From the UHGV virus genome UHGV-0304018: a stretch of DNA of 14,202 bases. One strand, 5' to 3'. Under the pieces are notes generated by a model that saw only the letters and a list, made by a program, of their open reading frames with translations, did not search any database and had not been told where the DNA came from. Origin of the DNA: a virus. This document shows positions 47 through 14,202 of this stretch, in pieces. Position numbers and translations under genes: made by a program. The stretch's first letter is position 1. The number at the start of each line of letters is the position of its first letter.

Positions 47-75
47 ATCTTATCATACTGTCAACAGAATGTCAA
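47..75 (-). promoter_or_regulatory. Candidate leftward promoter inside the conserved 110-nt repeat block (copy A)
   Basis: On the minus strand: TTGACA (rc of 70..75), 17-nt spacer, TAAGAT (rc of 47..52). It points at a GTG start at position 11 whose ORF runs off the left window edge. Confidence 0.35.
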
Positions 76-404: not shown

Positions 405-506
405 GAATCCCTCGCTTAAACGGTCCGGATTGGAAACAGAAGTCTCTTATCCGGACTCCACATTATAAAGCTCCGTGCTATAGCACTACGCTCCCCACAC
501 ACAATT

Positions 507-541
507 GGGTGACGTGTCATGTATGGAATACATTGTCACCC
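507..541. promoter_or_regulatory. Large imperfect palindrome GGGTGAC-N21-GTCACCC with nested ATGTAT/ATACAT arms; candidate operator or RNA hairpin (copy A)
   Basis: Arms are exact reverse complements; identical in both repeat copies and flanked by CACACA runs. Confidence 0.5.
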
Positions 542-606
542 CACACAGGCCGACGTAGTCGGTTTAGCTGTATAGCTAAAGTCACAGAGTGACCCACACA
601 CATATT

Positions 607-645
607 GCCTAAAGAGTCGCTAATGCTCTTTAGGCTTTCATTTGT
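607..645 (+). terminator. Rho-independent terminator, rightward (copy A)
   Basis: Perfect 10-bp stem gcctaaagag / ctctttaggc with a 9-nt loop, followed by tttcatttg. Confidence 0.6.
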
Positions 646-698
646 GGGTTAAGCTTTTCCCTTAGAAAACCTTCCCCACTCTCTGATCCCTCCCCATT

Positions 699-721
699 CC
701 CCCCTGGGGGGTTAGGGGGGG
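699..721. repeat. Homopolymer cluster C6-T-G6-TTA-G7
   Basis: Read directly: cccccctggggggttaggggggg, just left of the iteron array. Confidence 0.9.
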
Positions 722-763
722 ATCTATTGTGTGGTCTATTACTTTATCTATTAGTGTCAAATA

Positions 764-949
764 TTTTTACAGGTAGTAGTAAAAGATTTTGACAGGTAGT
801 AGTAAAAATATTTTACAGGTATGGGCCGTATTATTGGTGGGGTAGTAAAATATTTTGACAGGTTAGGGGCTGTGTATCATGGGTGCAATGACTGCAAAAC
901 AGGAGAGTATGACTGTATAAACACACAGGTGTGAAAATTCTTTACAGGT
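764..949 (+). repeat. Array of five iteron-like direct repeats, core TTTKACAGGT; candidate origin of replication or protein-binding array
   Basis: Cores at 765-774, 787-796, 811-820, 854-863 and 940-949; the first two units also share acaggtagtagtaaaa; spacing of the first three is 22-24 bp. No ORF on either strand. Confidence 0.6.
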
Positions 950-1141
950 TAGTGCGGTAATATTTACCGGGGTGTGGTGCCTGAGTATGACTGAAAGGGG
1001 TTGTAGGAAATCCCAACAGGTGGGGGAGTGATTGCATCTGATTTTTTACTCTGTATTAGCCGTCAATTGACCTATTTTGACTAGCAAACCTCTCTCCTCT
1101 CTCTTTGCTTTGATTTTCTCTCATGTGTGGGAAATATGCAG

Positions 1142-1167
1142 ATCAACACCCGTTGATTTTATCAACA
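1142..1167. promoter_or_regulatory. Overlapping palindromes ATCAA-N6-TTGAT-TTT-ATCAA including a DnaA-box-like TTATCAACA
   Basis: Read directly; TTATCAACA (1159..1167) is one mismatch from the TTATCCACA consensus. Confidence 0.3.
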
Positions 1168-1726
1168 GTTATGTTGACCGGGTGTCATAACTATGGCCCC
1201 TGGGGCAGTCCATCCTTCCCTCACACAGGACAATGAATACATAAAGAACATGAAAGACTGTTCACACCAACACGCCGATAAATTGCCTGAAGAGGCTTGC
1301 ATGGGGTTATTGTTGTGTGGGTAATGGTGATCATGCTAACAGATTATGTTAATCAGATGTAAATTCCGGTTTTGTGGTCTACAGAGAACAAACTATACTG
1401 GTTAAATGATCAGGGGAATGACTACAAAACAATCAAAAATGTGGGATATAGCCATCTATACGTCTAATGTGCTGTGTGGGGTGTTAGTGCATGCTTACAT
1501 GTAAGTCATTGATTTGAAGGGTTGGGAAAATTGCATTTAACATAATAGATCTTATCTACACTAATAAAGCGCACTACAAAATCTGATTTAAAAATCATGA
1601 TCAGTGGGCACAGAATTTACGTACAGCCACCTGAATAAATAATGTGCACAACATACAGCAAAGCTTAAGAATTAACATAATAGCAACGTGGTCGGCAGTG
1701 GTGTGATATTTGAGAATTGTTAGAAG

Positions 1727-1763
1727 AAAAAAGGGAGGTGGGGGAGCGCCTGCCTGGCACCTC
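1727..1763 (-). terminator. Possible weak leftward terminator in the gene-free region
   Basis: 6-bp stem GAGGTG / CACCTC with a 17-nt loop, followed on the minus strand by CC and T6. No matching promoter was found. Confidence 0.3.
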
Positions 1764-2302
1764 AGACGAACATCTGACGGGTATTAATACCGCTAATGGA
1801 TATTTCTGACACCCACACCCAAGACCGCTTTCAGCACACAGCCATACACCGCACAGGATGCAATTGTGATAACAAAAAATGGGGGTGTAATAGGGTAGGT
1901 CATCTTTCATCAAAATCACTTCTACGACGTTCCCAGAGTGATAACAAGAAAACAGGCCTCTAAGATTATCTGTGCCTCGTTTTTAGCTTTTTGTGTGGTT
2001 ACCAGGTGAATAGGAAATGTTAAAAACTGTTCATTTTATGCACAAACTAGTCAGGGTGATACTACAAATTGAGGTGTAAGAAATCCAGCTGCAGATAATC
2101 TTGCAGCCAGATTTTGCAGTTTTTGAGGGTATGTTAAATTTGACAAAAATAGAGAAAAGGCCAATTGAGCTAAGCTATTGATTTTATTAGTATTGCAAAA
2201 AAGGGTTACATCCTCTCTCTTACACTGTCAACAATGCCCAAAACCATTAAATCAATAAATAGGCATTAAATACCCATTAAATAGGGGTTAAATAGGGGAT
2301 AA

Positions 2303-2328
2303 ATAAAAAAGGGGCCGTGATGGCCCCC
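2303..2328 (-). terminator. Rho-independent terminator ending the leftward membrane-protein gene
   Basis: Perfect hairpin ggggcc-gtgat-ggcccc (2311..2327) followed on the minus strand by T6, 17 nt after the stop codon at 2345. Confidence 0.75.
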
Positions 2329-2344
2329 TGGTGGGTTGGTGTGG

Positions 2345-3055
2345 TTATTTCATAGGAGAGGTTTCTACGGCTTCACCGTACATCTCATTAAGCATCTTCA
2401 ATGCTTCCATATCAACATTCAGGAGTGTTCCCTCAGTGATCCAGGCGTTATTCTGCCATGCTTCGTGAACGAGTTCACCGTTATACCATCGAGCCGTTCG
2501 TGTAGTTTCTATGCTTACACCGTCCATGTGGCGCATCTGTAGCCAACGATCATTGCCTTTTACATCCTTGCACCATACCGTCAGAACATCTTTATTTTTC
2601 CCAGTAGGTGCCCCACTGTTAACCGCCACTTTAATCTGGTTGCAAGCACCTTTTTCTGCATGATTCCACAGCCAGGCGTGAATCTGGTATTTATCTGTGC
2701 ATCCTATATCTTTAGAGAGATCGCAATCTAGCACACCATAAATATATTTATATGCTTTTACCCTGTCCTCCCATGTAAGATCGGAGACGTTAACCACTTC
2801 TTCATGCTGTGAGTTCACCTCTTCCACATTTGCAGCTGTATTTCCTGTGGGAAGAGAGAAGTAGGCCCAGCCAATAAGCCCCGCGACTATAACCAGACTT
2901 GTTATGACTGCTCCAGGGTGCTCTTTATATTGTGCATGCAGCTTTTTAATATCTTTCCCTACACTCATCACTAGTAATAGAGGCAAAGCAATTACTAACA
3001 CCCATGGACCAAATACAATGCAAGCTAATAGTGTAACAATAATTCCCTTAAACAT
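2345..3055 (-). CDS. Membrane protein, 236 aa: two N-terminal TM helices plus a ~165-aa extracytoplasmic domain with four Cys; function unknown
   Basis: ORF track; hydrophobic segments at about aa 5-30 and 50-68; SD AAGGGG 7 nt before the ATG; own terminator. The superinfection-exclusion or defence role is inference only. Confidence 0.75.
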   Translation of the reverse strand: MFKGIIVTLLACIVFGPWVLVIALPLLLVMSVGKDIKKLHAQYKEHPGAVITSLVIVAGLIGWAYFSLPTGNTAANVEEVNSQHEEVVNVSDLTWEDRVKAYKYIYGVLDCDLSKDIGCTDKYQIHAWLWNHAEKGACNQIKVAVNSGAPTGKNKDVLTVWCKDVKGNDRWLQMRHMDGVSIETTRTARWYNGELVHEAWQNNAWITEGTLLNVDMEALKMLNEMYGEAVETSPMK

Positions 3056-3062
3056 AGTGGTA

Positions 3063-3083
3063 CCCCTTTGCGAGAAGTTGATT
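3063..3083 (-). promoter_or_regulatory. Duplicated leader element AAAUCAACUUCUCGCAAA (minus-strand sense) immediately 5' of the ribosome-binding site of 2345..3055
   Basis: 18 nt identical to the element at 3583..3603; a 12-nt core gcgagaagttga recurs at 8086..8097. Confidence 0.5.
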
Positions 3084-3112
3084 TAAGTTAATAACCTGGT
3101 GGACTGTTCACA

Positions 3113-3373
3113 CTATTTATTCTTCTTAAATCTCCCATCCTCCTTTCTTTCGATATTGTGGTAGTCGGCATAGGCTTTTAGCCTTCTGTGCACGGTGGCG
3201 ATCCCCACACCGAAGGTTTTAGCGATGACCTGTCGTGGCGTTCCCTCCTCAACCATCTTGTACATCTGTTCCGCTACATCCATTTGTGCGGCTATCTCCA
3301 TTTGCTTTGCCTTAGCTTTAATTTCAGCTATCAGCTCTTCCCTCAGTCTCTTAATATCTTTAGTTCCCGTCAT
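3113..3373 (-). CDS. Small DNA-binding protein, 86 aa: N-terminal charged helix plus a C-terminal HTH resembling the DNA-binding domain of Hin/Gin-type serine recombinases; no catalytic domain
   Basis: ORF track; GTPRQVIAKTFGVGIATVHRRLKAY resembles the Hin C-terminal HTH as recalled from memory, not searched; start codon overlaps the stop of an upstream small ORF (ATGA). Confidence 0.7.
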   Translation of the reverse strand: MTGTKDIKRLREELIAEIKAKAKQMEIAAQMDVAEQMYKMVEEGTPRQVIAKTFGVGIATVHRRLKAYADYHNIERKEDGRFKKNK

Positions 3374-4711: not shown

Positions 4712-5764
4712 TTGAAGATGGCTAAGAAAGAATTTGAAGTTCGCGATCTGTGTGGTCTGATTAAAGACATCCCGCTGGATAACCAGATTATTTCAGCAAT
4801 GGATATCTTCAACACTACAGCCCTGTGCAATACCTTTAAATTTGAATATGACAAAGTTCGCCAGGTGAAACAAACCGCTTTCGGTCAGTATCCGCGCTAC
4901 GGTGAACAGATGGCTACCATTACCGCAGATGAGCGTGAAACGGGCACGGGTGATATGGCATTCACTGCCGCATCAAGTGCTATTTATCCTTCTGACTGGC
5001 AAGGTATCCGTGTTCCGGGCAAAGATTCCGAAGAGAATTTAGAGTCTGTAACCGCTCGTCGTGTTATTCAACTGGGTGAAGGACTACGCGCGACCCATGA
5101 AGAAGCACGCCAGCTTGCTCTCTTTGAGAACAAAATTATCCTTACCAAGGGTAAAGAACTGAATGTGTGCGAACTGCTGGGCGCACAGCAAACCACTTCA
5201 GAAGTGGATCTAGCTCAAGATATCCTTAAACAGCTGCAGGACCTGGTTGCACTGAGCAAGGTTAAACAGCGTGGTGTTGTTCGCGCTCTGCGTGGTTTCA
5301 CCCTGTTCTGCCGTGCTGAGCTCTTTGCTGCAATTCAGACTGATGAACTGCTCCGTAAAGTGCTGTTGTTCGGCAATCAGAATATTACCGACAAAGGTCT
5401 GATGTTCCCTGAGGATATTCTGCCGGGCTTCCCGACCTTCCGCATTCCGGGCTTAGCTCTGCGTGTGGTGCAAATGGATAGTCTGCCAGAGAATACTGCT
5501 TATCTGGTCCCACAGTTCCAGCCGCATGCGTTAGGCGATATGGTGGGCGTTTATACTCAATTTTTCGGCCCTTGCGCTCGCAACCTGAAGCTTGCAAACG
5601 GCGCTGCACGTGAAGCTTTCATGTATATGGAAGAGTCCAGAGGTAAACGAGAAATCTTCATTGAATCCTCTTATGCTTTCATGAACATGATGCCTGAGGT
5701 TGTGGTTAAAGTGAGTGTTAGTAACTCCGCCGCCGCTGCTCTGGCAAAAGCCAAGGCTAAATAA
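4712..5764 (+). CDS. Putative major capsid protein, 350 aa
   Basis: ORF track; strong AGGAGG site 6 nt before the ATG; size and position after the decoration-like gene; followed by a terminator. Fold not verified. Confidence 0.85.
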   Translation: MKMAKKEFEVRDLCGLIKDIPLDNQIISAMDIFNTTALCNTFKFEYDKVRQVKQTAFGQYPRYGEQMATITADERETGTGDMAFTAASSAIYPSDWQGIRVPGKDSEENLESVTARRVIQLGEGLRATHEEARQLALFENKIILTKGKELNVCELLGAQQTTSEVDLAQDILKQLQDLVALSKVKQRGVVRALRGFTLFCRAELFAAIQTDELLRKVLLFGNQNITDKGLMFPEDILPGFPTFRIPGLALRVVQMDSLPENTAYLVPQFQPHALGDMVGVYTQFFGPCARNLKLANGAAREAFMYMEESRGKREIFIESSYAFMNMMPEVVVKVSVSNSAAAALAKAKAK

Positions 5765-6129: not shown

Positions 6130-6234
6130 CGCTCTCGGGAAGAGCTATAAGCGATTCTAACGAATAACTGCCCTGTATTTTCTGCAGATTTTAAGCAGGG
6201 CAACGAAAAGATTCATTTTTGAGGCATGTTCAAT

Positions 6235-7002
6235 ATGGCTAATGATGCTCTAACAGCTGCAAAACAAGCTGAGTCGAGATCTCCTGCATTCACTGTTATG
6301 TGTGGGGGATATTCACAAAACAAAAATATAATGGATGGCTTCAACTATACCGATAATGTGGCTATCTTCTTTGACTCTATCTCTGATGTCAGCTATTCGT
6401 TCCCTGTTGAGAAATCGAGCTATGCGGTCGAGGATGGCACCACCATGTCAGACCATGCCGTCATTAAAGATAAATCTGTCAGCTTTACGGGTATTGTTAC
6501 CTCTTCCCCTCATATCATCCGGAAAGAGAACTACATCGACCGGAACACTGATCCAGATAATCCCCGTGAATCTATGCGCCCTGCTGCCGCTGTTCAGGCA
6601 CTTATGGAAATGAGAGACAAGCGCCAGCTGGTTAGCCTGGTTAGTGAAGATGCCGGACTTCTTGAGAACTTCATCATGACGAAATGTGAAGTTAAGCGTA
6701 GCTCTTCCTCTGGCGACTGCATCACTATTGATTGCACTTTTGAAGAATTCCGCACCTTCAAGGTGAAGATGGTCGAAAATGCCGGAGTTTTCACTAACAG
6801 TAAGAAGGTGAATAAAACACAGCAAAAGGGTGCTGTTAACAGTGCTGAGAAGAATAGCAACGTCGGGAACTCAACCAACACCCCATCGGCTAAGCCTAAA
6901 AATTTACAAACTTTGCTCGATGAAAATGATGGGGCTATGAGCACAAAAGACATTTATGATCAGCAAAGGCAAGCCAAATTTGCCAAGGATGCTACAAAAT
7001 GA
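6235..7002 (+). CDS. Hypothetical phage protein, 255 aa, probably virion-associated; function unknown
   Basis: ORF track ORF 6226..7002, start re-placed at the ATG at 6235 (GAGG 10 nt upstream); stop overlaps the next gene's start (ATGA). Confidence 0.75.
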   Translation: MANDALTAAKQAESRSPAFTVMCGGYSQNKNIMDGFNYTDNVAIFFDSISDVSYSFPVEKSSYAVEDGTTMSDHAVIKDKSVSFTGIVTSSPHIIRKENYIDRNTDPDNPRESMRPAAAVQALMEMRDKRQLVSLVSEDAGLLENFIMTKCEVKRSSSSGDCITIDCTFEEFRTFKVKMVENAGVFTNSKKVNKTQQKGAVNSAEKNSNVGNSTNTPSAKPKNLQTLLDENDGAMSTKDIYDQQRQAKFAKDATK

Positions 7003-7475: not shown

Positions 7476-7625
7476 TTAGATAAACTGGGATAATTCCCGC
7501 ACAAGCTTTATCTCCTGCCGTTCCTTCTGCTTCTCTTCTAACCATTTCCGGCCTTCTTCAGTCTTGAGAAACTTGCGAGCGTGAATCTTGCGGTTATTTC
7601 GCTTAATGGCATTGGCATTCTTCAT
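7476..7625 (-). CDS. Small very basic protein, 49 aa (MKNANAIKRNNRKIHARKFLKTEEGRKWLEEKQKERQEIKLVRELSQFI)
   Basis: Hand translation; below the ORF-track cut-off; SD AAGGGG before the ATG; candidate promoter just upstream; its start context is nearly identical to that of the membrane-protein gene. Confidence 0.5.
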   Translation of the reverse strand: MKNANAIKRNNRKIHARKFLKTEEGRKWLEEKQKERQEIKLVRELSQFI

Positions 7626-7659
7626 AGTGTCACCCCTTCTTATGACCTGCTACGCCTAC

Positions 7660-7688
7660 ATTATAGCCAAAATCCTGAATTCAGACAA
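7660..7688 (-). promoter_or_regulatory. Candidate leftward promoter: TTGTCT, 17-nt spacer, TATAAT
   Basis: -10 is rc of 7660..7665 and -35 is rc of 7683..7688; about 27 nt upstream of the start of the 49-aa ORF. Confidence 0.5.
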
Positions 7689-8085
7689 TAGAACTCTTTT
7701 TGATGCCGTGTTGGTGGTAAGGAGAAACACTAGCATCATTTAGGGGTTTTCAGGTTTTCATGTAGATCAGCTTTATCAGGTACCTGCTTATATTCCGGTG
7801 CGGTGAAACCGTGTGGGCATCTCTTAGTTTTGGCTTATCACTTATTGCCGGGTAAGAGAGCAGAACCACCAACGTTTGCCTGTTTATCACCTTGGTTAGG
7901 GTGAGGCCGCATCAAGCCCAGTGCTCTACAAGATACTCCAGATCATAGACGCTTATTTTCTCTTAGAGGTCGCGTTAACCTCTGGGATCTGTTTCCACTG
8001 ATGAATATAAAACAAACGGTATGAATGATCAAACGTGAACAGAAAGAGAGTTGACTTTCTCTCTGCAGATGATCACACTTGCCAG

Positions 8086-8097
8086 GCGAGAAGTTGA
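8086..8097. repeat. Third copy of the 12-nt core gcgagaagttga
   Basis: Read directly; lies 3' of the tape-measure gene, overlapping a possible rightward terminator hairpin (agcccc-N19-ggggct followed by ttttatt, 8097..8130). Confidence 0.5.
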
Positions 8098-8142
8098 GCC
8101 CCAAAGGATGACAAATCCCGAGGGGCTTTTATTATCAACCAG

Positions 8143-10284
8143 TTAGAAAAGCTGATTAGCTTCCTGTGTGGCTTTCCAATCCAGCTGATCGCTGACTTCC
8201 TTCTGGATCACCCTGGCAATTCCCCCCTCATCAATGGTTATCTCCCACTTGCCGGAGATCTCACCCTGCGGAACTACACTGATTTGAGTCGGCTGATAGC
8301 CTCCATTCTGAATAGCAATACCACCCGTTGGTGTTGGTCTGGTAATGTAGCGTCCTGCGTCCAGACGATAATCAAGGCCAAGGAAGCTAGAAGCACTATT
8401 AACCATACTGGTTAACCATTCAGGATGTTTAGCTCCTTCCTGCCGCTGATTATCAGGATTCTGCCAGTAGGAATCTAAGCTATTTGCAATGTCAAATCCT
8501 GTCAAAACAATCCCTGCCGGACCTGCAAATCTTCCTCCAAGTCTGCCTGCTTTCCCGATAAAGCCGCCTCTACCTGGTCTGCCTTTGCCTGCTGTGCCTC
8601 CAGTGCTGATATCACCAACACCGACTAAAGCACTAAGCGCCGCTTTAAGTTTCCACAGCATGGAAATAAGGCCGCCAACCATGCCAGCAATGCTTGTTGC
8701 AACCTTCAGGCCTAACAGGGCGGTCACAACCTGGCCAATCTTCTCGCCTGCATCCTGTGCGGTCCAGCCTAACGTCTCACCAATGCCTTTGGCGATCTTC
8801 TTAGTCCACCACCAAGCCCAGTTGACCCAAAAATAAATTTCATGCATTGCCTCGCCTAACATAACTCCGAGAGATTTGGCATCTTCACCTGAGCTACTGA
8901 AAATTGAGGATAAATCTTCAAAGATATAAATAAGGGATTCTGACAGGGTAATGACGCCATCCGCAGGATCCACAACACCCATAAAGGATTGCTTTAGTTT
9001 AAAAAACTGGTTGCTCATTCTCTGCAGTGCCACTTCAGGCTGTTGCATAGATTTAGCAAAAGCGTCAGTTTCTTTTGCAGCACCCCAGATTTTCACTAGA
9101 GAGGGAAGAAGCTTGTCCAGGGTGATTTTGCCATCTGCCATGGCTTTATCGAATTCCTGGGCACTCTTGATGATTCCGGCATCAATAGCGGCCTGTTGAA
9201 AATCCTGTTGTGAGCCTGCAAAGGCTTCTGACAGCTGGCCACGCAGCTCTTCCGCAGCTACTCTTCCTTTTGAAGCCATTTGTTGGACCGCAACAAGCGC
9301 CCTGTTCTGTTGCTCGCCAGTAGCACCCACTGAGCGGCCTTTAATCGCCATAGCCTCAAAAAGAGCCTGCTTATCAGATTCCTTCATGGTGGGAGTAGCG
9401 GCAGCAAAACGCATATAGCCACCCTCCATCTCACGCTGATCCATCCCGTAGGTGTTGGCTGTGTTCTCGATAAAAGCCATCTGCTGGTCAGTCTTGGCTT
9501 TATCATCCTTGTTCTGAGCAAGCAAACCATAATAGGCTGAGTTATGGTCAGATTGAGCGCTCATAGCACCACTAACAGCTCTCTGAATACCCCATCCTGC
9601 AGCGGTCAGGCCAATGGCTATCTTGCCTAAAGCACTGTTAAGCTTGCCGATATTGTTATGCACCTTGCTCGCACCTGCTGCCAGTTTATCTAGCTTGCTT
9701 TGAAAGGTGGTGGCATCTCTAGAGGCCATCTTCATTTCAGCTCTGAGTCGGGCCATTTTCTGATTATAGGTCTGCAGGTTAATAGCCCCTTTAGCATAAT
9801 CAGCATTAACTCTCTGGATTCTGCTTTGGAACTGAGCAACCAGGGATCCATCAAACATGCTGCTGATTCGTGCACTGTTGGCCCCTACACGTGCTTTTCT
9901 GTGCTGAACATCTCCAACACTACGATCTAACAGTTTTTGTTGTCTGGCGGCTTCTCTGGCTTGTTGTTGGTAGAACTTGCGCATAGAGTTAAGTTCGGCA
10001 TTGTTGCCCCCGGTCAGACGGCTGACAGCCTGAGCACGTTGTTTCTTCTGTGCTTCCTGTTGTTTCCTCTGAGCTCTGGCTATCTGCTCTTCCACCTTAG
10101 CGCGTGTTCTTTGTGTTCTGAGCACAGCCTGATTAGATTTAAAATCAGCTTTAGCTATATCGTCGGTAGCTTTCTTCCAGGATTTTTTATAATCCTCAAG
10201 CCGTTTAACTTCTTTTCGCCAGGAGGATTTATCAGAGTCCCAGTAAATAACGTTTGTTAGTCTGGCTACTTCCTTCATTGCCAT
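8143..10284 (-). CDS. Tail tape measure protein, 713 aa
   Basis: ORF track; charged coiled-coil-like N-terminal third, central region with the conserved core recalled for tape-measure proteins (GRVAAEELRGQLSEAF), and hydrophobic and Gly-rich segments near the C-terminus; SD GAGG before the ATG. Confidence 0.85.
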   Translation of the reverse strand: MAMKEVARLTNVIYWDSDKSSWRKEVKRLEDYKKSWKKATDDIAKADFKSNQAVLRTQRTRAKVEEQIARAQRKQQEAQKKQRAQAVSRLTGGNNAELNSMRKFYQQQAREAARQQKLLDRSVGDVQHRKARVGANSARISSMFDGSLVAQFQSRIQRVNADYAKGAINLQTYNQKMARLRAEMKMASRDATTFQSKLDKLAAGASKVHNNIGKLNSALGKIAIGLTAAGWGIQRAVSGAMSAQSDHNSAYYGLLAQNKDDKAKTDQQMAFIENTANTYGMDQREMEGGYMRFAAATPTMKESDKQALFEAMAIKGRSVGATGEQQNRALVAVQQMASKGRVAAEELRGQLSEAFAGSQQDFQQAAIDAGIIKSAQEFDKAMADGKITLDKLLPSLVKIWGAAKETDAFAKSMQQPEVALQRMSNQFFKLKQSFMGVVDPADGVITLSESLIYIFEDLSSIFSSSGEDAKSLGVMLGEAMHEIYFWVNWAWWWTKKIAKGIGETLGWTAQDAGEKIGQVVTALLGLKVATSIAGMVGGLISMLWKLKAALSALVGVGDISTGGTAGKGRPGRGGFIGKAGRLGGRFAGPAGIVLTGFDIANSLDSYWQNPDNQRQEGAKHPEWLTSMVNSASSFLGLDYRLDAGRYITRPTPTGGIAIQNGGYQPTQISVVPQGEISGKWEITIDEGGIARVIQKEVSDQLDWKATQEANQLF

Positions 10285-10285
10285 T

Positions 10286-10522
10286 TTATACCTCGCCCTG
10301 TCTTAAAGATTTTGATAATGAAATAGCCCTTTTCAGGGCCTCTTTATCAATATTATATTTCTCCGCCAGCTCTTCGATTGAGAGGCCTTCTGTGTGGGAG
10401 CTACTTTTAATAATGGTGGACCCCTCTTTCGCTGCCTCTGGCAGGTGACCTATTGTCACCCCTTCGGGCGTGTCTTCGGAGTCCTTAACCAGTTTTTGAT
10501 AAATCTTTTCGTAGATATTCAT
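10286..10522 (-). CDS. Hypothetical protein, 78 aa, immediately upstream of the tape-measure gene
   Basis: ORF track; SD AAGG 8 nt before the ATG; stop is 1 nt from the tape-measure ATG. A tail-assembly-chaperone role is inferred from position only. Confidence 0.7.
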   Translation of the reverse strand: MNIYEKIYQKLVKDSEDTPEGVTIGHLPEAAKEGSTIIKSSSHTEGLSIEELAEKYNIDKEALKRAISLSKSLRQGEV

Positions 10523-12257: not shown

Positions 12258-13121
12258 TTATTTTGTAATGGTTAATTCGCCTTTTACAAGCTTGCAGTTG
12301 TTCCACAATCTTTCTTTCGGGGCATCATAGCCATGACTAATATAATCGATGATAATTGTTTTACCTCTTTTAGCTACATGTTGAGCCACCTTAAGGGCCT
12401 GTTCTGTTAAATGCCAATAATCATCTTCTTTCCAGATTCTACCCTCAACGGTGCCTTTAATTTTATCCATCACCTCCGGCCCGTAAAATGCATCTCGCAA
12501 TTCAGAGAGTTTAATGCTCTTCCGATCCTTAAATGTTGCCTGAATCCCTTTGTATTTGGCGTTCATCTCATCACTTGTCAGAATCGGATAACCGTGCTCA
12601 TCTTTCTCACGTTTGCCAGCGTCTCTAAAGCGCTCTCTGCGCTCGTTCTTAGGTTGGGTAGGCAATTGCACCACCTCGGCCTTTTTAGCTTGCTGTGTGG
12701 GTTGTTTTGGGGCTTCCTGTTGATTATCGGGGGCCTCTTTACTAGATCCCACACTGTCGGAGGTTTTAATACCCTGCTCATCACACATCTTGCCAAGCTG
12801 ATCAGGGGTAATTAGCAGTTTGTAATGATTAGATTTGCCTTTACTTTTAACTATTGAAATAAGCCCGGCATTTTCTAGAGATTTAATCGAGTTAATAACT
12901 GTCGGTCTTGAAACATCATAATCGTCTGCTAATCTCTGTTCAGAGATAAATATTTCACAACCTGCAGCATTAAAACTTGCCATCTCACCGTAAATTGTCA
13001 TTTCCAACAAGTTTAAGTGAAATCTTTCTTTATTGGTTGTAGTTTTTGCAATCGGATTTTTAAAAATGTATTTGATGAAACGTTTAAAAAGGGGAGTAAA
13101 ATTTTCCCCGTAATTACTTGC
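12258..13121 (-). CDS. Winged-helix DNA-binding protein, 287 aa (N-terminal wHTH, low-complexity linker, C-terminal domain); replication-initiator-like or antirepressor-like
   Basis: ORF track ORF 12258..13181, start re-placed at the internal ATG at 13121 (GGGGGA site 4-5 nt upstream), which removes the overlap with 13138..13353; wHTH-like segment ISEQRLADDYDVSRPTVINSIKSLENAGLISIV. Confidence 0.75.
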   Translation of the reverse strand, partial: ASNYGENFTPLFKRFIKYIFKNPIAKTTTNKERFHLNLLEMTIYGEMASFNAAGCEIFISEQRLADDYDVSRPTVINSIKSLENAGLISIVKSKGKSNHYKLLITPDQLGKMCDEQGIKTSDSVGSSKEAPDNQQEAPKQPTQQAKKAEVVQLPTQPKNERRERFRDAGKREKDEHGYPILTSDEMNAKYKGIQATFKDRKSIKLSELRDAFYGPEVMDKIKGTVEGRIWKEDDYWHLTEQALKVAQHVAKRGKTIIIDYISHGYDAPKERLWNNCKLVKGELTITK

Positions 13122-13137
13122 CATAATTCCCCCATAA

Positions 13138-13486: not shown

Positions 13487-13636
13487 TCAGACATTCGTCA
13501 AATTGTCAACAATCTTTTTGTATTTATCTATCATTTTTTCTTCAAGATTGTCGATTGCAGTTACTCCGGCTATGTAGGCAACACCGCACCACAGTACAGC
13601 CAGGTTGATGATCGCTATTGCATCAGTAATTTCCAC
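13487..13636 (-). CDS. Possible small single-TM protein, 49 aa, GTG start; its start lies inside the conserved 110-nt repeat block
   Basis: Hand translation (VEITDAIAIINLAVLWCGVAYIAGVTAIDNLEEKMIDKYKKIVDNLTNV); GGAGG 5 nt before the GTG; competes with a probably spurious plus-strand ORF 13472..13672. Confidence 0.35.
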   Translation of the reverse strand: MEITDAIAIINLAVLWCGVAYIAGVTAIDNLEEKMIDKYKKIVDNLTNV

Positions 13637-13671
13637 ATTGACCTCCGGATCTGTTTCTCCCCCTATTTATA

Positions 13672-13700
13672 ATCTTATCATATTGTCAACCAATTGTCAA
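13672..13700 (-). promoter_or_regulatory. Candidate leftward promoter inside the conserved 110-nt repeat block (copy B)
   Basis: Same TTGACA / 17-nt / TAAGAT arrangement as copy A, upstream of the small ORF 13487..13636, which has a GGAGG ribosome-binding site. Confidence 0.35.
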
Positions 13701-13914
13701 TGAGAATTATTATCATTTAGGTGTGCTATAGGTGCCATAGCCTGCACAGCAGACACAAGCAAGCCCACAAGGGAGGGCACTTTTTGCCTTAAGCGCTCTA
13801 AAATCGATTCTAACGCGATTTAGAGGTCAGGTAATGCAATTGCACTACTCACACTAGTTAATGCAGCCAGAAGGCCATTTAGGGGGCTTATTTTCGATTT
13901 ATGAGTGTATCCTT

Positions 13915-13933
13915 TATATATGTGTGCGTGCAC
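13915..13933. repeat. 19-nt alternating purine-pyrimidine tract (tatatatgtgtgcgtgcac) in repeat copy B
   Basis: Read directly; followed by the palindrome cccgcgcggg. Confidence 0.8.
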
Positions 13934-14089
13934 CCGCGCGGGAGACTCTTTGCTGCCTCCTTCCGGCGCTGGCAAGCTTTCGGCAGCGGTCCACATGTGG
14001 GCCTCATGCTGACGCATTCGCCGGACCACACACAGACCCGAAGGGCTTAGCCATGGGCTAAGGTGCCGTAGGCACTCCCACACACAATT

Positions 14090-14124
14090 GGGTGACGTGT
14101 CATGTATGGAATACATTGTCACCC
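14090..14124. promoter_or_regulatory. Same GGGTGAC-N21-GTCACCC palindrome (copy B)
   Basis: Identical to 507..541. Confidence 0.5.
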
Positions 14125-14137
14125 CCACACACATATT

Positions 14138-14176
14138 GCCTAAAGAGTCGCTAATGCTCTTTAGGCTTTCATTTGT
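14138..14176 (+). terminator. Rho-independent terminator, rightward (copy B)
   Basis: Identical 10-bp stem, 9-nt loop and T-rich tail as 607..645. Confidence 0.6.
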
Positions 14177-14202
14177 GGGTTAAGCTTTTCCCTTAGAAAA
14201 CC

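Follow-up and report, generated by a model that had tools for sequence, protein, structure and literature searches.

We analyzed the gene-free region of UHGV virus genome UHGV-0304018, a stretch of 14,202 nucleotides (nt) that is referred to below, at its full length, as the window. It represents slightly more than one unit of a family of circular E. coli/Shigella plasmids of ~13.5 kb. The gene-free stretch covers ~2.3 kb, roughly from 13640 through the window start to 2345, and contains no annotated gene in any relative. An earlier sequence-only reading had placed an iteron array here, with flanking homopolymer tracts and a DnaA-box-like palindrome, and its view of the region as gene-free held: none of nine annotated relatives has a coding sequence there, a tRNA scan of the window found none, and an Rfam scan of the whole window (E ≤1) gave no match and thus no RNAI/ColE1-like or other known RNA. 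The features that matter most are the following.

699-721: GC block, C6-T-G6-TTA-G7, in which a C-run and a G-run form a hairpin and another G-run follows
721-754: AT-rich block, GATCTATTGTGTGGTCTATTACTTTATCTATTAG, 34 bp, with TCTATT at 723, 735 and 747 (12-nt spacing); proposed DNA-unwinding element
756-774, plus strand: cognate site 1 (type A), GTCAAATATTTTTACAGGT, register +0 after TTTATCTATTAG
779-797, plus strand: cognate site 2, GTAAAAGATTTTGACAGGT, register +23
802-820, plus strand: cognate site 3, GTAAAAATATTTTACAGGT, register +46, with perfect 6-bp arms GTAAAA/TTTTAC
845-863, plus strand: cognate site 4, GTAAAATATTTTGACAGGT, register +89, kept in six of seven site types
931-949, plus strand: degenerate type-A-like site 5, GTGAAAATTCTTTACAGGT, which misses the dyad core even at ≤1 mismatch
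955-973, plus strand: single heterologous type C site, CGGTAATATTTACCGGGGT
1003-1021, plus strand: single heterologous type B site, GTAGGAAATCCCAACAGGT
1086-1178: conserved right flank, with a CT-rich tract (1086-1108), an invariant 23-mer, CTCTCATGTGTGGGAAATATGCA (1118-1140), and half-sites (1141-1178)
12258-13124, minus strand: initiator-like gene, 288 amino acids (aa)

The repeat array is real and non-random. The window contains exactly four copies of the motif TTTKACAGGT (765, 788, 811 and 854), with 0.06 expected and none of 200 shuffles reaching four. Five copies had been counted previously; four are exact, and the supposed fifth (940-949, CTTTACAGGT) carries one mismatch. Spacing of three repeats by about two helical turns was confirmed as 23 bp, and a period-23 array was reported by TRF at 759-821. 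The true repeat unit is longer than the one first described: it is a 19-bp site whose first 15 bp form a dyad core, GTMAAANNNTTTKAC (GTMAAA-N3-TTTKAC). This core has four perfect matches in the window, all of them in the array, and only 0.19 would be expected even with one mismatch allowed. Successive sites in the window are 23, 23 and 43 bp apart. Behind these four sites, the degenerate site 5 is present in many relatives, whatever their own type. The type C sequence is the primary array of elements with a TEKTVRSA recognition helix, and the single type B site is kept beside the right flank in most relatives; the flank of L004 differs there.

The block C6-T-G6-TTA-G7 was found at 699-721 as the sequence-only reading had given it. 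It pairs as a hairpin in a single-stranded DNA fold and forms the left boundary of the AT-rich block. With small differences in length it was detected in relatives that share the conserved anchor and in L026, and in the L010/L021 type it reads CCCCCC-TTGTT-GGGGG-ATTATA-GGGGG; no equivalent block was seen beside the AT block of the 19-kb relative L023. The AT-rich block, which had not been singled out earlier, lies between the GC block and site 1 and directly adjoins the latter. GC content is 0.25-0.28 across 721-810, and in duplex stability 736-795 ranks third lowest within the element at both 40 and 60 bp. A TCTATT-repeat block adjoins the array in every relative, including L023, in which the module is relocated. 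On the right side, the overlapping palindromes noted before are present at 1141-1178 as four alternating ATCAAC/GTTGAY half-sites, and they do include the DnaA-like TTATCAACA (1159-1167). Its interpretation as a DnaA box was rejected. It has one mismatch to TTATNCACA, such boxes (≤1 mismatch) are not enriched in the window (21 versus 15.2 expected, with 20 of 200 shuffles reaching 21), and the position is polymorphic, with TTATCGACA in five compared relatives, TTATCGAAA in two and TTATCAACA in two and the window.

In a structure model, the 288-aa protein consists of an N-terminal winged-helix domain, a disordered linker with a conserved PQEAPKQ, and a C-terminal domain, which occurs in three allelic forms; the recognition helix of the window protein is SRPTVINS. 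Its PHROGs matches are to replication initiation, O-like and DnaD-like families (E 5e-12 to 1e-6), and matches to replication-initiation, O-like or DnaD-like families were obtained for all variants, including that of L007. Among 49 variants, Pfam HTH_36 was detected in all 49 at threshold level, DnaD_N in 24 (best E 4e-5, below threshold) and Phage_rep_O (PF04492) in 22, the last weakly (best E 0.008) and far below HTH_36 in strength; the window protein itself had no match to Phage_rep_O at E ≤0.1. Rep_3 (PF01051) gave no match at E ≤0.1 for the window protein and was outside the 25 Pfam families commonest among the 49 variants. Fold searches returned generic winged-helix proteins only, mostly repressors. 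This is also the most variable protein compared across the family, with 42-99% identity to the window copy and no match in L007, whereas most other family proteins are more than 90% identical. A sigma-70-like promoter (47-75, minus strand; TTGACA-17-TAAGAT, with TG), located by consensus scan only, reads leftward into an operon comprising a 49-aa open reading frame (ORF), p71 and the initiator, and has an equivalent copy at about 13672-13700; it may drive this operon. Promoter-like sites are not enriched in the region by the same kind of scan.

Comparison of relatives links this protein to the array. We used 19 family members with the usual initiator, namely the window, complete plasmids, and metagenome and isolate contigs; L007 was left out. 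In all 19, four sites directly follow the conserved TTTATCTATTAG, and the register +0, +23, +46 and +89 is kept in types A, B, C, D, E and G, six of the seven types. Site sequences and recognition helices are paired as follows.

Type A: site GTAAAAATATTTTACAGGT; helix SRPTVINS or SRPTIIKA
Type B: site GTGGGAAATTCCAACAGGT; helix DRGKIVSA
Type C: site CGGTAATATTTACCGGGGT; helix TEKTVRSA
Type D: site CGGAGAAATCTTCCGGGGT; helix SDRKIRDS
Type E: site GTGAGAAATCTTCAGTAGT; helix SDRKIIES
Type F: site CGGTAAATTTTACCGTGGT; helix TPKTVRTA
Type G: site GTGGGAAATCCCAGCATAT; helix DRGKIASA

All seven types have an A/T centre and variable, roughly palindromic arms, and a 3′ GGT is present in all except G. 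Helix class, defined by the first eight residues of the recognition helix, predicted array type in 19 of 19 elements, a result matched by none of 5000 shuffles; eight classes map onto seven array types with zero exceptions. Controls behaved differently. Wing class gave a single array type for only 79% of elements, and neither the C-terminal allele of the initiator itself nor the variant of the right flank, which starts a few hundred bp past the array, predicted a single type for any element. Because flanking loci and the surroundings of the N-domain have been reassorted while helix and array were never separated, the coupling appears to go beyond simple linkage. Most likely, related plasmids have swapped their sites and the protein reading head together at least seven times.

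Other candidate binders were tested against the same pattern. The sequence-only reading had suggested binding assays with a 162-aa and a 287-aa protein; the former is excluded as a site-specific binder, and comparative covariation singled out the latter (287/288 aa) as the array partner. Both p162 and an 86-aa helix-turn-helix (HTH) protein are identical across elements of different array type, and p71, whose stop codon lies 13 nt from the initiator start, is identical between A and B, B and E, and D and E elements; all three were rejected since each is identical across differing arrays. The exclusive pairing of helix and site argues strongly that the 288-aa protein binds the array sites. Types G and B share a common core, GGAAATYCC, and a near-identical helix, but the wing of G is one residue shorter and its 3′ flank is changed from CAGGT to CATAT. 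This difference suggests a division of labor in which the dyad arms are recognized by the helix and the 3′ flank by the wing.

What is this protein-site pair for? We consider it probable, at roughly 70%, that the repeats are the vegetative replication origin of the ~13.5-kb circular plasmid, built on the ori-lambda plan. An origin is preferred over other protein-site systems because the protein has replication-type PHROGs matches, because no other replication gene is present and because the array is always fused to the AT block. The element is recorded as an autonomous circular plasmid although Pfam and PHROGs scans revealed no other replication-related gene in it. The iteron-type origin proposed from the first reading is therefore borne out as a set of binding sites for a winged-helix protein, as covariation supports, and origin function is the best reading of that set. 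Of the two alternatives offered with it, packaging is made unlikely by a site that covaries with the element's own protein, and partition is less likely as no motor protein was found.

A possible mechanism can be outlined. Dimers of the 288-aa initiator would bind the four 19-bp sites (756-863), each an imperfect inverted repeat with 6-bp arms and an A/T centre followed by NGGT. The fixed register of 0, +23, +46 and +89 bp would allow the bound proteins to form one higher-order complex. This complex may strain the adjoining AT-rich block, which would melt at 721-754, with the GC hairpin block (699-721) as the outer boundary. The C-terminal domain, tethered by the disordered linker, could then engage the helicase or priming machinery of the host. 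Gene orientation and coarse GC skew both switch near 0-700 and near 7500-8100, which is compatible with an origin near 750 and a terminus opposite but is confounded by transcription direction; GC skew was dropped as origin evidence for this reason.

Several observations weigh against an origin. Covariation proves coupling and does not tell which process is coupled, and origin firing is inferred. All Phage_rep_O and DnaD_N matches are below Pfam thresholds, the best PDB profile match is the partition protein TubR (E 0.003, covering HTH and wing only), and an NCBIfam scan gave weak repressor-type matches only. The C-terminal domain has no recognized homolog, so that helicase recruitment is a guess. 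Neither a conserved DnaA box nor an IHF consensus site was found within 690-1200. Two adjacent two-mismatch matches to the oriC 13-mer consensus lie in the AT block (721 and 733), but the 13-mer count across the window equals chance and the likeness is a resemblance only. In addition, the array is ~1.26 kb from the initiator gene, unlike in lambda, and no P-like loader is present.

The alternative that survives best, which we nevertheless regard as improbable, is an operator array of an immunity or copy-control repressor. The dyads would be operators and the winged-helix protein a transcription regulator, controlling a promoter in the gene-free region or acting at a distance on the leftward operon, and the diversity of types would reflect hetero-immunity, as in lambdoid CI/operator sets. 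Covariation fits any specific protein-site pair, phage operators are also tandem dyads at about 23-bp spacing, the fold and NCBIfam matches are repressors, and one database source calls a homolog a 'winged helix-turn-helix transcription repressor'. However, no convincing promoter was seen in or beside the array, the sole match (minus strand, 935 to 906) scoring 9/12 in a region where such sites are not enriched, and there is no cognate site near the operon promoter at 47-75 or 13672-13700. PHROGs matches with an annotated function are all to replication, except for one weak generic 'HTH DNA binding protein' family. An operator also does not account for fusion of the array to the AT-rich TCTATT-repeat block even in the relocated module, and would leave the plasmid without an initiator or a recognizable origin.

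More doubtful still is a partition centromere, in which the winged-helix protein would bind tubC/parC-like repeats as a centromere and so segregate plasmid copies. TubR of pBtoxis is the best PDB sequence-profile match (E 0.003) and also appears at Foldseek rank 34, and centromere repeats and their binding proteins likewise covary and set incompatibility. Yet the match to TubR is confined to the generic helix-turn-helix and wing, the PHROGs evidence points to replication, and the 288-aa protein, roughly three times as large as TubR, additionally contains a linker and a second domain. Moreover, no TubZ-, ParA- or ParM-type NTPase was detected in Pfam and PHROGs scans or in the annotated genes and recorded Pfam matches of relatives. 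Both the operator and the centromere keep some probability because the fold matches are generic, TubR is the best profile match, and the steps from binding to firing are all deduced.

Hardly any weight can be given to a packaging (pac/cos) site for a helper phage terminase, or to an intergenic repeat that arose by chance or came from the host. An element with capsid, tape-measure and Dit-like genes but neither terminase nor portal probably needs a packaging signal somewhere in its non-coding DNA, but a helper-recognized site should neither covary with the element's own protein nor differ between near-identical elements, the invariant stretch at 1700-2150 is a better candidate, the repeats far exceed chance expectation, and no chromosomal match exists in 5426 E. 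coli genomes. A common host intergenic repeat had been named as the finding that would speak against the array; instead, all ten E. coli matches to 672-2344 are plasmid-borne and none is chromosomal.

Returning to the replication origin, the closest known design is that of lambda. Ori-lambda contains four imperfect inverted repeats of 18/19 bp that bind O dimers, beside an AT-rich region of 38-40 bp (PMC5043065, PMC7466680, PMC3349717). The array resembles it in having four ~19-bp imperfect inverted repeats suited to dimer binding, directly adjoined by an AT-rich block of 34-40 bp. Like O, the 288-aa protein has an N-terminal DNA-binding domain and a separate C-terminal domain, with weak profile similarity to the PHROGs 'replication initiation O-like' families (E 1e-6 to 1e-9). 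Lambdoid phages carry type-specific O N-domains matched to their iterons, and here the N-domain type of the initiator is matched to the site sequence in 19 of 19 elements. On the other hand, the array lies in non-coding DNA rather than inside the initiator gene, no P- or DnaC-like helicase-loader gene was found among the proteins scanned with Pfam and PHROGs, and the protein falls below the Pfam Phage_rep_O threshold. Further differences are the GC hairpin block beside the AT block, the single sites with other specificities behind the array, and the replicon itself, which is a plasmid. We conclude that the array works like ori-lambda and O but is not a member of that family, because it lies outside the gene, lacks a P-like loader and misses the Phage_rep_O threshold.

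Classical plasmid iterons (F, P1, pSC101, R6K, RK2) are direct and asymmetric and are bound by initiator monomers, and opening of these origins is thought to follow the lambda paradigm (PMC5043065). The window shares with such plasmids (F RepE, P1 RepA, pSC101, R6K pi, RK2 TrfA) a plasmid array spaced at ~22-23 bp beside an AT-rich region, and the sites are likewise expected to determine incompatibility. It differs in that each site is a dyad, which favors ori-lambda anatomy over Rep_3 iterons; further differences are that Rep_3 matches and conserved DnaA boxes are absent and that no inverted-repeat operator was seen at the initiator promoter. Judged by these features, the array is not a Rep_3-type replicon.

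Organizers of the RepA_N/DnaD-like type in Firmicute plasmids and phages offer a third comparison. The winged-helix N-domain has weak DnaD_N similarity and matches the PHROGs 'DnaD-like helicase loader' family (E 4e-9). Foldseek rank 8 is PDB 4pql ('N-terminal domain of DNA binding protein'), which we take to be the N-domain of staphylococcal RepA, and a variable C-domain thought to engage host factors is a shared feature. Here, however, the matches do not reach family thresholds, E. coli is the host, the C-domain resembles nothing recognized, and the array is outside the gene. The TubR/tubC type III centromere also combines a winged-helix protein with a short-repeat array; the present system differs in its much larger two-domain protein, in fusion of the array to the AT-rich block, and in that no TubZ was found.

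These data point to a probable origin and initiator for a plasmid family of which our literature search found no published description. An origin by itself is an ordinary feature; what adds value here is the comparative series, together with possible interference devices. The lambda design of dimer-binding dyad iterons would here serve a plasmid, with the array located outside the initiator gene and no P-type loader. In addition, the family provides a natural swap panel, with at least seven initiator/site specificities in the same geometric frame and on backbones that are ~93% identical; therefore, a winged-helix recognition code may be directly readable, and the evolution of incompatibility directly testable. 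Beyond these seven matched types, the family contains an eighth, unrelated N-domain type in L007.

The link between helix and array is kept in more distant relatives. In L026 an F-like helix is paired with five CGGTAAAATTTACCG-type sites. In L023 (19 kb), the region just downstream of the initiator gene contains six CCGGTAATTTTTACCGTA-type sites, of which four recur every 22 bp, and this array directly adjoins an AT-rich block of four TCTATT repeats. L007 encodes (L007 10592-11503) an unrelated winged-helix N-domain with the same linker and an acidic tail ending in DSAIPY, which resembles the C-terminal tip of SSB, DDDIPF. Left of its GC block, this relative has acquired three dyad repeats of 36 nt, TATATCAnnTTGATAT (L007 13006-13118), and it still keeps a type C array.

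Behind the four-site array of each element there are also single sites with specificities other than its own. Six of the 19 also have a paralog consisting only of the DNA-binding domain just upstream of the initiator, with a specificity that differs from the element's own. These genes are located as follows.

L025: 6546-6932
L022: 9603-9989
L019: 3651-4169
L021: 5383-5901
L020: 3520-4017
L024: 2581-3075

Paralogs with a C-type helix were observed in D- and G-type elements that lack a C-type site, and paralogs of the L007-type domain in B-, D- and E-type elements that lack L007-type repeats. An apparent single 'H-type' site was rejected, as it lies inside the coding sequence of an L007-type domain-only gene. 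It is conceivable, though rather unlikely, that the origin region is the battleground of an arms race over replication specificity between near-identical, co-circulating plasmids. Foreign sites would then be decoys that titrate a rival's initiator, and truncated initiators would sit on a rival's origin and bring in no replisome. A precedent for such interference is the known block of rep-lambda phages by ectopic lambda iterons (PMC3349717). Foreign sites and truncated paralogs may also be relics of recombination.

For the window itself, the best explanation is a circular element whose assembly passed through a two-strain bubble, not a tandem array, because each variant of its ends was found alone on a different metagenome contig. 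The two ends (1-671 and 13626-14202) are 95-100% identical at their edges and diverge in the middle, and an extra hairpin module (548-592) is present in one of the two. Contig L013 matches 414-3130, and contig L012 matches 13841-14202 fused directly to 593 onwards. Thus, the 'end repeat' corresponds to two variants of one region, and the tandem-unit organization assumed at first is not supported: of nine annotated relatives, eight are circular records with lengths of 13.2-13.7 kb. The ninth (L002, NZ_CP043822.1, 39,610 bp) is a 39.6-kb trimer record of three near-identical units that differ mainly in homopolymer lengths, with some genes broken, and is either a genuine multimer or a long-read assembly artefact.

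Relatives were present in seven of 5426 complete E. coli genomes, with no chromosomal copy, and megablast matches to the window were E. coli plasmid records only. Initiators form 111 clusters at 90% identity, and the corresponding contigs are nearly all about 13.3-14.4 kb and come from E. coli, Shigella and E. albertii. The MOB-suite typing shown in PLSDB gives only 'non-mobilizable' and lists no replicon type. No relatives were found in GTDB species representatives or IMG/VR, and neither the initiator nor the capsid protein had a tblastn match among 50,697 phage records. Three Alkalihalobacterium matches were rejected as 22-residue chance matches.

Within the gene-free stretch, 111-671 (and 13736-14202) consists of highly variable modules, in which short stable hairpins separated by CCCACACA differ in number and sequence between relatives. 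Folding of 480-760 as single-stranded DNA is strong (z = -7.8), and terminator-like hairpins lie on the plus strand at 338-360 and 607-635. Signals for single-strand initiation could be located in this part, or it could give rise to a non-coding RNA that is transcribed toward the origin. The most conserved gene-free stretch is 1700-2150, with 97-99% column identity among 20 elements and invariant runs of up to 38 nt. Within it lie a perfect DnaA box, TTATGCACA (2036-2044), and, at 2087-2124, three TGCAG repeats with a spacing of about 12-13 nt. A structured RNA was rejected there (z-scores of -0.96 and -0.40 on the two strands), and the stretch is a candidate packaging or other cis-acting site. 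At 2256-2305, about four tandem 11-nt units (TAAATAGGCAT / TTAAATAGGGG) stand beside a terminator-like hairpin (2309-2329) that follows the gene for a 236-aa protein.

The rest of the element encodes several small proteins with unknown functions and the following recognizable ones.

4712-5764: major-capsid-like protein
6226-7002: Dit/baseplate-like protein
8143-10284, minus strand: tape-measure protein
Window element: 86-aa HTH_7 protein

Pfam and PHROGs scans of the proteins revealed no recognizable terminase, portal, integrase, partition NTPase, helicase or primase, and the element may be a plasmid-borne phage satellite. Three further loci are mosaic, independent of origin type. Alleles of the tape-measure protein diverge, with 67-72% identity in most relatives and 98.7% in L004; a 78-aa protein (10286-10522, minus strand) has two alleles of ~59% identity; and the 236-aa membrane-anchored protein (2345-3055, minus strand) is replaced by unrelated proteins of 173-239 aa in most relatives. 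Downstream of the leftward promoter, the first ORF (13487-13636, minus strand) specifies a conserved hydrophobic peptide of 49 aa (VEITDAIAIINLAVLWCGVAYIAGV...). It is annotated in all relatives and could be either toxin-like or a small membrane protein. A second, truncated copy of the start of this ORF contains window position 1.

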